45,398 bases of DNA from positions 1 to 45,398 of the IMG/VR virus record IMGVR_UViG_3300044266_000189, one strand, 5' to 3'. This document shows, piece after piece, positions 27,303 through 30,544 of this stretch. The notes under the pieces were generated by a model that was given only the letters and a program-made list of their open reading frames with translations, did no database searches and was not told where the DNA came from. A program made the position numbers and the translations under genes. Within the stretch, counting starts at the first letter, position 1. The number at the start of each line of letters is the position of its first letter. Source of the stretch: a virus (taxonomy: Duplodnaviria; Caudoviricetes).

Positions 27303-27806
27303 ATGAAGTTAAGTATAGTTGGTTGTCCCGATAAAAAACGCTTTAGACCCTTTGTTAAACGGGCTGCTCTTTTCTACGCAGAACAATTGCTAACTCCAAG
27401 AACACTAGAGAATTTTACTTTAAGAATAAAGTTTAATTCAAAGTTGGATGCTTATGGATATGCCTCAGCAACAGAATTTTCACCAAGTAATAAACCAAGA
27501 CAGTTTGAAATAGAATTACATCCTGGCATTGGTGCTTCTGATATATTGAAAACATTGGCACATGAAATGGTTCATGTAAAACAATATATCAAAGGTGATG
27601 TTAATATGAAACTTACTCGTTGGAAAGGCATGAGAGTTGATGATGTGGATTACTGGACTCAGCCTTGGGAAATAGAAGCACACGGATATGAATCCGGTCT
27701 ATTTACTAAATTTGCTGTTAAAGAAAAACTTTGGGAAGTATTTAAAGGTGTACAGAATCCGGATTCACCTATTGATTCTGAGCCACTTGGCTGGATTCAA
27801 ACATAG
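27303..27806 (+). CDS. Zn metallopeptidase-like protein
   Basis: TLAHEMVHVKQY (HExxH) and PWEIEA. Confidence 0.75.
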   Translation: MKLSIVGCPDKKRFRPFVKRAALFYAEQLLTPRTLENFTLRIKFNSKLDAYGYASATEFSPSNKPRQFEIELHPGIGASDILKTLAHEMVHVKQYIKGDVNMKLTRWKGMRVDDVDYWTQPWEIEAHGYESGLFTKFAVKEKLWEVFKGVQNPDSPIDSEPLGWIQT

Positions 27807-28380
27807 CATTTACTAGCATTTCAAACTGTTCATCACCATATTGATAATCTTCTAGTATCTCTAGCATTTTATCACATACCTCTAAAACTCGATTATGATT
27901 TTTGATATTTTCTTCTCGTTGTTTGATTTGGGTGGCAATAAAAGCTTTTAGTATATTCTCACCCTCTTTTTTCTTTTTGGTTTTGGCCAAGAATTTTTCT
28001 AGTTTGTTTATGGAATTAATGCAAATTGAAATCTGTTCCCTCAAATAGTTTTTCTCTCTTTCAATATCCATTTTCATAGATACGACCAAGTTACCCAATT
28101 CAGGATCAATTTGTTCCATGAAGATGTTAATTATTCTTGCAAGATTATTCATGGCTTCATCACGAAGATTTGGATTCATTTCATATTTTCCTGTTGTATC
28201 AAAATGTTTTCTACGGACAGGATCACTTAATATGGAATATGCTAGATTGATTTGTTTGAATTTTTCTTCATCACCATCAACTCTATCTGGATGGTATCGT
28301 TGAGCCAGTATACGAAACTTCTTTTTGATTTCATCATCTGTGGCTTGTGGAGGAACTTCTAGTATGGTATATGGATTCAT
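27769..28380 (-). CDS. J-domain (DnaJ-like) protein
   Basis: NPY.ILEV...IKKKFR.LA..YHPD...F..I..AY.ILSDP..R..D. Confidence 0.9.
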   Translation of the reverse strand: MNPYTILEVPPQATDDEIKKKFRILAQRYHPDRVDGDEEKFKQINLAYSILSDPVRRKHFDTTGKYEMNPNLRDEAMNNLARIINIFMEQIDPELGNLVVSMKMDIEREKNYLREQISICINSINKLEKFLAKTKKKKEGENILKAFIATQIKQREENIKNHNRVLEVCDKMLEILEDYQYGDEQFEMLVNAMFESSQVAQNQ

Positions 28381-28417: not shown

Positions 28418-28446
28418 TTGACATACAGAAAAAGTGCCTATATAAT
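28418..28446 (+). promoter_or_regulatory. sigma70 promoter of leader peptide/tRNA operon
   Basis: TTGACA-17 nt-TATAAT perfect consensus; predicted TSS at or near A of ATG 28453. Confidence 0.9.
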
Positions 28447-28452
28447 AGAACA

Positions 28453-28530
28453 ATGAAAAACATATTTACGAACTCCTCAACACATTATACACCAGGGAAT
28501 AGTCCATGGTGTGAAGGGGTTCGTCTGTAA
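28453..28530 (+). CDS. Putative leaderless attenuator leader peptide MKNIFTNSSTHYTPGNSPWCEGVRL
   Basis: 25-codon ORF at predicted TSS overlapping alternative hairpins; codons match downstream tRNAs. Confidence 0.7.
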   Translation: MKNIFTNSSTHYTPGNSPWCEGVRL

Positions 28531-28590
28531 ATTTTTTAGTAGTACCAGATTTATACGAACCCAAGTCTAACAACTTGGGTTTTTTGTTTT
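28468..28590 (+). terminator. Attenuator: protector 1:2, antiterminator 2:3, intrinsic terminator 3:4
   Basis: 1=ACGAACTCCT (28468-77); 2=AGGGGTTCGT-CT-GTAAATTT (28515-34); 3=AGATTTATACGAACCC (28547-62); terminator AACCCAAGT-CTAACA-ACTTGGGTT-TTTTGTTTT (28558-90). Confidence 0.8.
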
Positions 28591-28594
28591 CCGT

Positions 28595-28668
28595 TTCTCG
28601 TTGGTGTAATGGTAGCACAAGGCACTCCAAACGCCTTGGCGGGAGTTCGATTCTCTCACGGGATGCCA
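28595..28668 (+). tRNA. tRNA-Trp(CCA)
   Basis: Cloverleaf, loop CT-CCA-AA, TTCGATT, G73, encoded CCA; U1-U72 and A31-C39 mismatches. Confidence 0.85.
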
Positions 28669-28676
28669 GTTTTATT

Positions 28677-28751
28677 CGGAGATTAGGCTAGTGGCAAGTC
28701 GCTCGGTTTGGGACCGAGAAATCGAATGTTCGATTCATTCATCTCCGACCA
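28677..28751 (+). tRNA. tRNA-Pro(TGG)
   Basis: CGGAGAT/ATCTCCG acceptor, CTCGG-TT-TGG-GA-CCGAG, A73, CCA. Confidence 0.93.
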
Positions 28752-28774
28752 TGTTGTTTCCATACAACAGTCGC

Positions 28775-28802
28775 TTGACTTATTGTGTGGTTCGTGTATA
28801 AT
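28775..28802 (+). promoter_or_regulatory. Internal sigma70-type promoter in tRNA array
   Basis: TTGACT-16 nt-TATAAT, preceded by TGTTG...CAACA inverted repeat. Confidence 0.6.
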
Positions 28803-28826
28803 GGTTTACTTAAATGTGAGTAACAA

Positions 28827-28982
28827 AATATTATAGTTAAATGTTATCAAGGTATCGTGTATAGACGTATACACTATTCGGGCCTAACTGGCGAGGGACA
28901 GGTCCTGAGATAACTGCTTAGTCGCTATGGGATGGGCGCACCAGACCCCTAAATGGAGCAGATAACATTTAATTATGATATT
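28827..28982 (+). ncRNA. Unknown structured RNA 1
   Basis: 22-bp closing stem with two G-U pairs; GC-rich interior with hairpins and possible pseudoknot. Confidence 0.7.
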
Positions 28983-28991
28983 AGTTTCAAT

Positions 28992-29067
28992 TCCGGTCAA
29001 GCAAACACGGTGTAGGCGGAGGACTGTTAATCCTTGAAGCGTGGTTCGATTCCACGGACCGGAGCCA
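28992..29067 (+). tRNA. tRNA-Asn(GTT)
   Basis: TCCGGTC/GACCGGA acceptor, CT-GTT-AA loop, G73, CCA; A at position 8, weak D stem. Confidence 0.9.
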
Positions 29068-29073
29068 AAAAAT

Positions 29074-29157
29074 GAAGCAGAAGCATCAATGGTGATGCAC
29101 TGGACTGTAAATTCAGCGCCTCTGGCACGCTTGGTTCGATCCCAAGATGCTCCACCA
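29074..29157 (+). tRNA. tRNA-Tyr(GTA)
   Basis: CTGGA-CT-GTA-AA-TTCAG, long variable arm, A73, CCA; two acceptor mismatches. Confidence 0.8.
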
Positions 29158-29201
29158 GATTTGAAATACGCTTTCTACTAAATATGTAGAAGGAGATTAT
29201 T

Positions 29202-29630
29202 ATGAAACAAAGACAAAATAGTTTTACTGATAATGAATTGATTGAAGCATATAATCAAGAAAAACATTTGGGTAAACTAGCAGTAAAATTTAAAGTTCCA
29301 CATATACAAATGTGGAGAAAATGTAAACAATTAGGATTACAATTTGGTAATGGTGGTGGTAATAATGGAAAGTTTTTACTGGATGATGTATTAAAAGGTT
29401 TACATCCATATTATCAAACTAATAAATTAAGAAAACGATTAATTCGTGAAGGTGTTTTTGAGAATAAATGTTTTTGTTGTGGAATTACTGAATACAACAA
29501 TAAACCAATTGTAATGCAGTTAGACCACGAAAATGGAGATAGTTCAGACCATCGTAAAGAAAATTTAAGGTTGTTGTGTCCTAATTGCCATTCTCAAACC
29601 GAAACATGGTGCGGTAAAAATAAACCATAA
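29202..29630 (+). CDS. HNH homing endonuclease inserted in tRNA array
   Basis: C..CG...LDHENG...D.R.ENLRLLCPNCH; SD AAGGAG. Confidence 0.9.
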   Translation: MKQRQNSFTDNELIEAYNQEKHLGKLAVKFKVPHIQMWRKCKQLGLQFGNGGGNNGKFLLDDVLKGLHPYYQTNKLRKRLIREGVFENKCFCCGITEYNNKPIVMQLDHENGDSSDHRKENLRLLCPNCHSQTETWCGKNKP

Positions 29631-29633
29631 AAA

Positions 29634-29729
29634 AACAGGAGGCCTTGTGTCTGTCAAGCTCACGACCTGTTAAAATAAATGTGAGTGGGAGTTTGTTAGT
29701 TTATCCTTCAGTAGAAGCCAAACTGACAC
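29634..29729 (+). ncRNA. Putative pseudoknot plus hairpin RNA element
   Basis: AACAGG/CCTGTT crossed by GCTCAC/GTGAGT with A-rich linker; TGTTAGTTT/AAACTGACA stem. Confidence 0.45.
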
Positions 29730-29732
29730 CTT

Positions 29733-29806
29733 GCCTTTTTAGTTAAATGGTATAACGCTTGACTTGTAATCATGAATTGTTGGTTCGATTCCATCAAGAG
29801 GCACCA
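29733..29806 (+). tRNA. tRNA-Thr(TGT)
   Basis: GCCTTTT/AAGAGGC acceptor, CT-TGT-AA loop, TTCGATT, CCA. Confidence 0.9.
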
Positions 29807-29824
29807 ATTTTAAGGAGAGTAAAG

Positions 29825-29987
29825 AATTATTATAGTGAAGTGTTTTGCTCGTTATTGTTGAGCGGCATAAACCCCCTGTCGGGTTTCGCTGGATACGGCA
29901 CCGCAAAGTATACAAGAAAACACGCCAGACATTTTAGCATGTGGGCTGGTAGGAAGGGAAGCTACAAAACACTTCACTATAATAATT
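29825..29987 (+). ncRNA. Unknown structured RNA 2
   Basis: Perfect 23-bp terminal inverted repeat enclosing a GC-rich multi-hairpin interior. Confidence 0.7.
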
Positions 29988-29989
29988 TG

Positions 29990-30066
29990 GGGCCTTTAGC
30001 TCAGTTGGTTAGAGCAGTCGGCTCATAACCGTCAGGTCGTTGGATCATACCCAACAAGGCCCACCA
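29990..30066 (+). tRNA. tRNA(CAT), probably Ile2 (lysidine, reads AUA)
   Basis: GGGCCTT/AAGGCCC with C4-G69, C5-G68 TilS-type determinants; resembles E. coli tRNA-Ile2; atypical T loop ATCATAC. Confidence 0.8.
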
Positions 30067-30084
30067 AGTTTACCAAACAAAGCA

Positions 30085-30113
30085 TTGACTTTGTTTATAA
30101 GTAATGATATAGT
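30085..30113 (+). promoter_or_regulatory. sigma70-type promoter for tRNA-Gly-like RNA and tRNA-Gly
   Basis: TTGACT-17 nt-TATAGT with TG extension. Confidence 0.7.
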
Positions 30114-30122
30114 ATTACATAT

Positions 30123-30189
30123 GCGGTGTGTGATAGCACGATTTAAGATTCCCTCTTAAATTATCTGAGCAAAGCAGACCACCGCTCCA
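30123..30189 (+). ncRNA. Non-canonical tRNA-Gly-like RNA (67 nt)
   Basis: GCGGTG/CACCGC-T-CCA acceptor, mini D hairpin, 8-9 bp anticodon stem with TCC loop, T arm lacking TTC. Confidence 0.75.
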
Positions 30190-30190
30190 T

Positions 30191-30264
30191 GCGGGATTAG
30201 TTTAGTGGTAAAACTGGAGATTTCCAATCTCCTGTCGTCAGTTCGATTCTGACATCCCGCTCCA
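30191..30264 (+). tRNA. tRNA-Gly(TCC)
   Basis: GCGGGAT/ATCCCGC, GGAGA-TT-TCC-AA-TCTCC, U73, CCA. Confidence 0.95.
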
Positions 30265-30444
30265 TTATTGAGGATGTGAGAGAAAGAAAAGGAATCCTAA
30301 CTGTTAAGGAGAAACACTATCCTAGCAATATCGTATCCACTATCCGGAGATTTTCTACCATCCCAAAAGTAGAATGAAAGCGTGAGGTCTAGGAGATGGG
30401 TTTTTAAAGCCATCTTAAACACACAACAGTATCCTCAATAATGG
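30262..30444 (+). ncRNA. Unknown structured RNA 3
   Basis: 15-bp closing stem CCATTATTGAGGATG/TATCCTCAATAATGG starting at the tRNA-Gly CCA; internal stems TCCTAG/CTAGGA, TTCTAC/GTAGAA, AGATGG/CCATCT. Confidence 0.6.
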
Positions 30445-30544
30445 ATTTTTTCGATAATACTTATCAAAACATATCATAATTCAAATAAGTCTTTTTTTAA
30501 GTTTTATCGTATAGATAATATTATGATTAACTTTTGGAGATATC

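Follow-up and report, generated by a model that had tools for sequence, protein, structure and literature searches.

Why a phage tRNA array should be preceded by a very short open reading frame (ORF), written largely in the codons that the array's own tRNAs read, is the question raised by the IMG/VR virus record IMGVR_UViG_3300044266_000189, analyzed here over its 45,398 bases (the window), the only part of this genome in view. The leader ORF (28453..28530, plus strand, 25 aa, MKNIFTNSSTHYTPGNSPWCEGVRL), running from an ATG to an in-frame stop, lies between a promoter and an intrinsic terminator, and seven tRNA genes follow. The ORF and its hairpins likely constitute a ribosome-mediated transcription attenuator of the array; modeling and comparison make it quite probable that, through this device, slow movement of ribosomes along the leader codons lets RNA polymerase continue into the array.

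The codons of the leader are exactly those quoted in the first-pass annotation, which proposed that they mirror the anticodons of the array, and the inventory of seven tRNAs was borne out. On the plus strand, tRNA-Trp(CCA) (28595..28668) and tRNA-Pro(UGG) (28677..28751), which form the first block, tRNA-Asn(GUU) (28992..29067), tRNA-Thr(UGU) (29733..29806), and tRNA-Gly(UCC) (30191..30264) are called by ARAGORN and Rfam, and a tRNA with a CAU anticodon (29990..30066) is called by ARAGORN. The weakly scoring tRNA-Tyr(GUA) (29074..29157, plus strand) appears at relaxed thresholds only: Rfam assigns it 28.1 bits, below the gathering score of 29, ARAGORN finds it at -ps90, and its acceptor stem contains two mismatches. 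The CAU tRNA constitutes a sequence class of its own, distinct from the clade's other CAU tRNAs, which are of initiator-like and elongator-Met-like type; by identity rules, we take it to be a likely tRNA-Ile2, which would read ATA after lysidine modification. Its T loop is ATCATAC, in which the usual U54/A58 pair is apparently swapped to A/U, and a similar loop is found in one related locus (L226).

Standard wobble lets the seven tRNAs read 13 of the 24 leader codons, and each tRNA has a cognate codon there; the other 11 codons have no tRNA in the array. Among the 13,267 codons of the 52 coding sequences (CDSs) in the window, the readable share is 18.5%; only 2 of 12,019 24-codon CDS windows of the contig reach 13 readable codons, and 6 of 12,019 cover all seven tRNAs. 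The overlap is better than in base shuffles of the leader (P=0.0008), with the peptide fixed and synonymous codons drawn from contig usage (P=0.00017), and against random sets of 7 out of 27 tRNAs (P=0.0003). The codon-tRNA match thus exceeds chance and is real. Two subsidiary claims stood in part. The leader does comprise 17 different residues among its 25 codons, with no single-residue run longer than two, but such diversity is only mildly unusual, at least 16 residues being present in 5% of 24-codon CDS windows. The isoacceptor choice goes against contig usage for ATA (0.15) and GGG (0.03), whereas for Thr and Pro the contig's most frequent codons are ACA (0.43) and CCA (0.46) anyway.

The RNA around the ORF has the layout of an attenuator. 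A sigma70-type promoter with a 12/12 score (TTGACA-17-TATAAT, 28418..28446, plus strand) ends in a -10 box only 6 nt from the leader ATG, so placed that transcription would start at the ATG itself. The ORF is likely leaderless, because no Shine-Dalgarno (SD)-like motif is present in the 16 nt 5' of the ATG in the 18 family members examined and because a TTGAC-like -35 box is found in 7 of the 18; its length across the family is 22-25 codons. Segment 1 (28468..28477, plus strand; codons 6-9) is predicted to pair with segment 2 (28515..28524, plus strand), which lies in the last codons (G-V-R) and has segment 3 as its other predicted partner. Between segments 1 and 2, the Thr-Pro codons (ACA CCA) pair with the Trp-Cys codons (TGG TGT) in an inner hairpin of the 1:2 structure (28488..28513, plus strand). 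Segment 3 (ACGAACCC, 28555..28562, plus strand) is common to the antiterminator and the 5' arm of the terminator, a hairpin with a U tract (28557..28590, plus strand) directly 5' of tRNA-Trp. The ORF alone folds at -24.7 kcal/mol (z=-3.6), and the whole leader reaches z=-4.3. Helices 1:2, 2:3, and 3:4 are mutually exclusive according to predicted folds and covariation; as in known attenuators, a short ORF stands between promoter and terminator, and the U-tract terminator precedes the putatively regulated genes.

The inner hairpin bears on how the codons are to be interpreted. TGG is paired in it (P>0.5) in all 18 family leaders, its partners being ACA-CCA/TCA, and CCA precedes the invariant TGG in only 1 of the 18; for these two reasons, the suggestion that the CCA-TGG pair points to the first two tRNAs was rejected. 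The same pairing, along with the fact that the G-V-R codons double as the antiterminator strand, is what would be expected if the codons were set by RNA structure and A-richness, with the ORF merely parking a ribosome on segment 2 or being incidental. The preference for Thr ACR regardless of a Thr(GGU) tRNA in the array (54/61 vs 13/15) fits this as well. Such an explanation nevertheless seems very improbable: it does not predict a match in a single frame to each lineage's own tRNA block. A single event also speaks against it: the Trp codon and tRNA-Trp are missing together from locus L329 but present in its sister L288.

Conservation supports the attenuator layout. Counting duplicates, the RNA core recurs at 24 viral loci. 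Every one of them contains an in-frame ATG ORF with a stop just 3' of segment 2, and tRNAs lie downstream in 23, the remaining contig stopping at the terminator. When terminators were sampled blind to ORF and antiterminator (tRNA-less ones with less than 500 nt of flank being dropped), the combination of ORF and antiterminator was found at 38 of 49 tRNA-preceding terminators and 0 of 19 others in a first sample, and at 15 of 24 and 1 of 53, respectively, in a second. Covariation of the antiterminator was assessed on 39 aligned sequences with an 8-pair helix, 500 shuffles, and five measures. Paired cells amount to 86.9%, with 12 two-sided changes (C-G/U-A and G-C/U-A); none of the 500 shuffles reaches the observed cells paired, changed cells, or covariation score, and every slid control is lower on cells paired. 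What sequence and homologs show is a promoter, an ORF, and a terminator at constant distances from one another, an antiterminator helix with compensatory changes, and an excess, confined to the reading frame, of codons cognate to the downstream tRNAs.

The peptide itself varies freely in its middle and differs completely from one lineage to the next, whereas the geometry of the RNA is retained. This argues against control by a protein of phage or host, or by the timing of infection, with the leader peptide or the short transcript left by termination acting in trans; the codon-tRNA match, which requires decoding, argues against it too. Liberated attenuator RNAs do act in trans in Sinorhizobium, as the accessible part of one report describes (PMC6614838), and promoter-like sites inside the array (see below) show further layers of control, but a trans-acting switch appears scarcely credible here. 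Among 80 loci picked by their upstream gene, leader length mostly goes with array size, being long in front of full arrays and shorter in front of reduced ones. At the smallest arrays (Thr/Met or Gly/Met) no leader was seen. Loci L258, L267, L272, and L283 retain the terminator and tRNA block but have no dedicated leader; in the last three, the upstream gene stops 23-25 nt 5' of the terminator and is a possible stand-in for the leader.

In the proposed mechanism, a ribosome would load at the 5' AUG of the leader. On reaching the leader end, it would cover segment 2, the terminator would form, and transcription would stop 5' of tRNA-Trp. A ribosome lingering within codons ~3-15 (as far as 18 if one of the footprints is assumed) would instead break the 1:2 helix; segment 2, once freed, would form the 2:3 antiterminator, and the tRNAs would be transcribed. 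This would create a feedback in which more tRNA is transcribed when decoding slows. Since additional tRNA genes are of use only where the tRNA molecules themselves are scarce, the signal would likely be a loss of tRNA in the infected cell and not starvation for an amino acid. In the footprint model, segment 2 captures the terminator arm of the nascent RNA with P ~1.0 while the A site is at any of codons 3-15, compared with at most 0.23 once the A site is at C20 or later; for codons 16-19, P18 included, the outcome depends on the assumed footprint. Most relatives are predicted to switch as the window does, with a sensing range that ends just before W.

Such a device has recognizable counterparts. 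Attenuators of amino-acid operons include the trpL, hisL, thrL, and ilv leaders. The accessible account of pheL describes alternative 1:2, 2:3, and 3:4 hairpins with stalling that frees segment 2 (PMC3082878), and the phage leader resembles leaders of the pheL-pheA type in its short ORF, its three alternative hairpins, and its U-tract terminator. Unlike amino-acid operon leaders, it has neither a one-residue run nor an SD sequence, its ORF encloses segment 2, and phage tRNA genes rather than biosynthetic enzymes or synthetases lie downstream, so that its output would restore tRNA and not an amino acid. Membership in the classical group (trpL, pheL, hisL, thrL) was rejected on account of the missing residue run and the tRNA targets.

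The residue-diverse upstream ORF (uORF) of whiB7 in Mycobacterium smegmatis may be comparable in another respect. According to the accessible portion of its description, it contains every residue but Cys, its composition sets the shortages sensed, and a single codon suffices for sensing, one Trp codon being enough (PMC10274678); the phage leader has 17 residues, a level reached by about 5% of CDS windows. The whiB7 uORF is chromosomal, enriched in Ala, and drives a transcription factor, and that portion of the description reports no match to a downstream tRNA inventory. A likely leaderless leader peptide is shared with Deinococcus deserti, where (e.g., at cysS) the peptide starts at the transcription start and attenuation of aminoacyl-tRNA synthetase genes is predicted (PMC4007540); as far as the accessible text of that source goes, those leaders are single-residue sensors before protein genes and concern neither phages nor tRNA genes. 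T-box riboswitches also read tRNA status and choose between terminator and antiterminator, in the accessible part of the account (PMC4695836), but they carry a specifier stem and a T-box motif, bind uncharged tRNA directly, and have no ORF. The T-box identity was dismissed, because Rfam gave the leader no T-box match, whether at the gathering score or with E relaxed to 5.

Whether leader codons follow the tRNAs behind them was examined on 61 curated leaders, 37 of which have complete arrays. Among these 37, array size correlates with the number of different leader residues (Spearman 0.79); leaders of full arrays have 17-20 residues, and those of relatives with full arrays 19-20. The expectation that, under permutation across phages, leader codon content tracks the tRNA set held between lineages but only weakly among close relatives. 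With permuted arrays, z=5.1 was obtained for 20 complete reduced arrays and z=2.6 (p=0.01) for the 13 closest family members, while one leader per lineage (n=18) gave z=7.4 with all residuals positive. As these 18 lineages had been hand-picked after the table had been seen, a rule-based repeat was made, in which 186 candidate blocks yielded 120 with 3-18 tRNA types and then 29 clusters; this set keeps spurious ORFs and represents the window's family by relatives. The 29 clusters give z=6.4 in frame, with 22 of 29 positive, vs z=-1.3 in frame +1, z=-1.5 in frame +2, and z=-0.4 on the reverse strand. Stop codons in the other frames were discarded as uninformative: ATG-A always yields TGA in frame +1.

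Loci with two leaders provide a control for genome composition. In L077, one leader matches its own block at 18/31 and the other block at 7/31, and the second at 19/34 and 7/34; in L047, the values are 9 vs 7 of 24 and 20 vs 6 of 33. In L064 (IMG/VR 3300029288_000066), whose array has multiple copies of Asn, His, Thr, Lys, and Ile tRNAs, the leader rich in Asn/His/Thr stands before the first three and the leader rich in Ile/Lys before the last two. Within the window's own clade, the leaders of L240, L288, and L329 each contain five or six Leu codons, and a tRNA-Leu heads each array. In L329 (= L282), this first tRNA is tRNA-Leu(AAG), an anticodon rare in bacteria, and the leader uses five different Leu codons. 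These comparisons support the conclusion, drawn from sequence, that leader codon content tracks downstream tRNA content across lineages and between blocks of one locus.

Among close relatives, the claim of an exact, genome-specific mirror was not supported. Nine sister pairs, taken from a partly resolved tree and in three cases paired by judgement, divide 6 for and 3 against (p=0.25), and each of the window's seven tRNAs also has a cognate codon in 7 of the 17 remaining family leaders. The window's array reads 0.39-0.62 of other family leaders, vs 0.54 of its own. A cognate codon is present for 83 of 95 tRNA types in the 13 complete family arrays. Family leaders prefer ACR (52/57), ATA (16/22), and GGR (12/17), compared with 48%, 15%, and 21% in the contig, although these are homologous positions and not independent. 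The match is mostly a family trait: the leader would be fitted to the tRNAs typical of its lineage, lagging recent tRNA gains and losses.

The weak tracking between sisters, the similar share of other leaders that the window's array reads, the 17-20 residues in leaders of full arrays, and the 11 codons without an array tRNA, which include three Ser, Phe, His, and Lys inside the sensing window, also suit a general gauge of translation speed similar to the whiB7 uORF. Any stall would then be sensed, and the match would be inherited, leader and array having shrunk from a full-set ancestor. This seems unlikely, yet not negligibly so. The codon excess is frame-specific, and shrinkage alone does not explain complementary leaders within one locus (L077, L047, L064) or Leu-rich leaders before Leu-led arrays (L240, L288, L329). 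The speed gauge and the tRNA-tuned attenuator preferred here share the same machinery, and the difference is one of degree.

Besides the poor agreement of sister pairs, several other observations weigh against the tRNA-tuned attenuator. Three of the seven codon matches (ACA, CCA, and TGG) are partly structural, because TGG is paired in the inner hairpin throughout the family, and may be held in place by that hairpin. W19 lies at or just outside the modeled sensing window (P at most 0.32). The equilibrium terminator probability in the window falls only to ~0.45, a level at which only a kinetic switch would work, and ribosome-free nascent RNA favors 2:3 in most relatives, vs 1:2 in the window (antiterminator 0.35). 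Two of the five covariation measures are not above shuffles, and some alignment rows are out of register. A cognate codon for Glu(UUC) is found in 2 of the 8 complete family arrays carrying this tRNA, and for Arg(UCU) in 0 of 3; the L204 leader matches only 2 of 22 codons, and in L240 the array has Leu(CAG) while the leader uses CTA codons. Tracking of isoacceptor choice between arrays was not supported, five tests of choice against array content all being non-significant. Five of the seven tRNAs sit 3' of internal promoter-like sites, which would bypass the attenuator, and blocks 3' of internal promoters show no tracking (z=0.75, n=10).

In first blocks, tracking gives z=2.1 (n=14) and pairs divide 5 for, 0 against, with 2 ties (p=0.03); the split was devised post hoc, after the Glu exception had been seen, and serves as a lead only. 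The systematic exception, Glu, coincides with the tRNA usually directly 3' of the first internal promoter. Under the attenuator reading, the first block (Trp, Pro) would be the most directly leader-dependent.

The first internal site, a sigma70-like promoter (28775..28802, plus strand, 11/12), is kept in relatives (47 loci), where it usually stands directly 5' of tRNA-Glu, a tRNA that the window genome does not have. Lying between this promoter and tRNA-Asn is a stem-closed non-coding element (28830-28975, plus strand), kept at 22 loci within tRNA arrays and with no match in Rfam. An HNH endonuclease gene (29202..29630, plus strand) is inserted in the array, and a hairpin (29171-29193, plus strand) buries its SD-like AAGGAG; translation of T4 homing endonucleases is blocked in a similar way. 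Between this gene and tRNA-Thr, a conserved non-coding stretch (29632-29730, plus strand) has matches at 6 loci. The CAU tRNA is preceded by an element (29824-29990, plus strand) with a closing stem of more than 20 bp (z=-3.95), which has matches at 19 loci, some covering the closing stem alone, and none in Rfam.

The second internal promoter (30085..30113, plus strand, sigma70-like, 10/12, extended -10) is conserved. Directly 3' of it lies a tRNA-like RNA (30123-30189, plus strand) with a GCGG...CCGC acceptor stem, a UCCA end, a shrunken D arm, and a long anticodon-like stem with a 5-nt loop. Its acceptor end is presumably of the Gly type; neither ARAGORN nor Rfam calls it. The region of this promoter and the tRNA-like element has matches at 103 loci, with compensatory-looking changes. 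The stem-closed element 3' of tRNA-Gly (30265-30445, plus strand), with conserved ends and a variable middle, is found in many relatives, and an Rfam search was empty at E up to 5.

The phage encodes a T4-like gene set (tail sheath, portal, major head, gp46-like nuclease, clamp loader, DNA polymerase, UvsX, and helicase). No close cultured relative was found, the best DNA polymerase identity being 52%; the upstream protein is less than 40% identical to that of cultured relatives, and the leader region has no match in cultured phages apart from tRNA-Trp. The total tRNA set of a complete relative (G001, 161.8 kb) is the six tRNAs of its array, so tRNAs for the unmatched leader codons are probably not encoded elsewhere in the window's genome either. 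A DnaJ-domain gene (27769-28380, minus strand), missing here in most relatives, separates a conserved 167-aa gene from the leader; finding relatives through it gave J-domain matches only, and the approach was discarded. A scan of GTDB returned a single contig of 2 kb, binned with Bacteroidia, that has an ORF, a terminator, and tRNA-Ser; it is possibly phage DNA, and no host claim is attached to it. Scans with a C-terminal pattern were set aside, their matches being mostly chance: 19 of 65 distinct sequences have a short ORF and a tRNA at most 300 nt away, and 2 further sequences have an ORF and a terminator on contigs that end early.

No account of attenuation controlling phage tRNA genes was found in full-text searches of the literature, most subscription papers being outside their scope. 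To judge from the sequence comparisons, the leader likely works like a classical attenuator, here probably directed at tRNA genes. Why phages carry tRNAs is a long-standing open question. One current view, as set out in the accessible part of its source, is that phage tRNAs replace host tRNAs destroyed on infection (PMC10264068). This view predicts a switch responding to slow cognate decoding, whereas codon compensation does not need one. That large T4-like phages run a tRNA-pool feedback, each block having a test mini-gene in its own codons and host tRNA loss (for example, by anticodon nucleases) switching on the matching tRNAs, is given a chance slightly better than even. Should the reading hold, leader-peptide attenuation would extend from amino-acid supply to tRNA supply, the leader would be a ready-made sensor for the loss of particular tRNAs, and its codons would constitute a genomic record of the tRNAs that the phage loses in its host.

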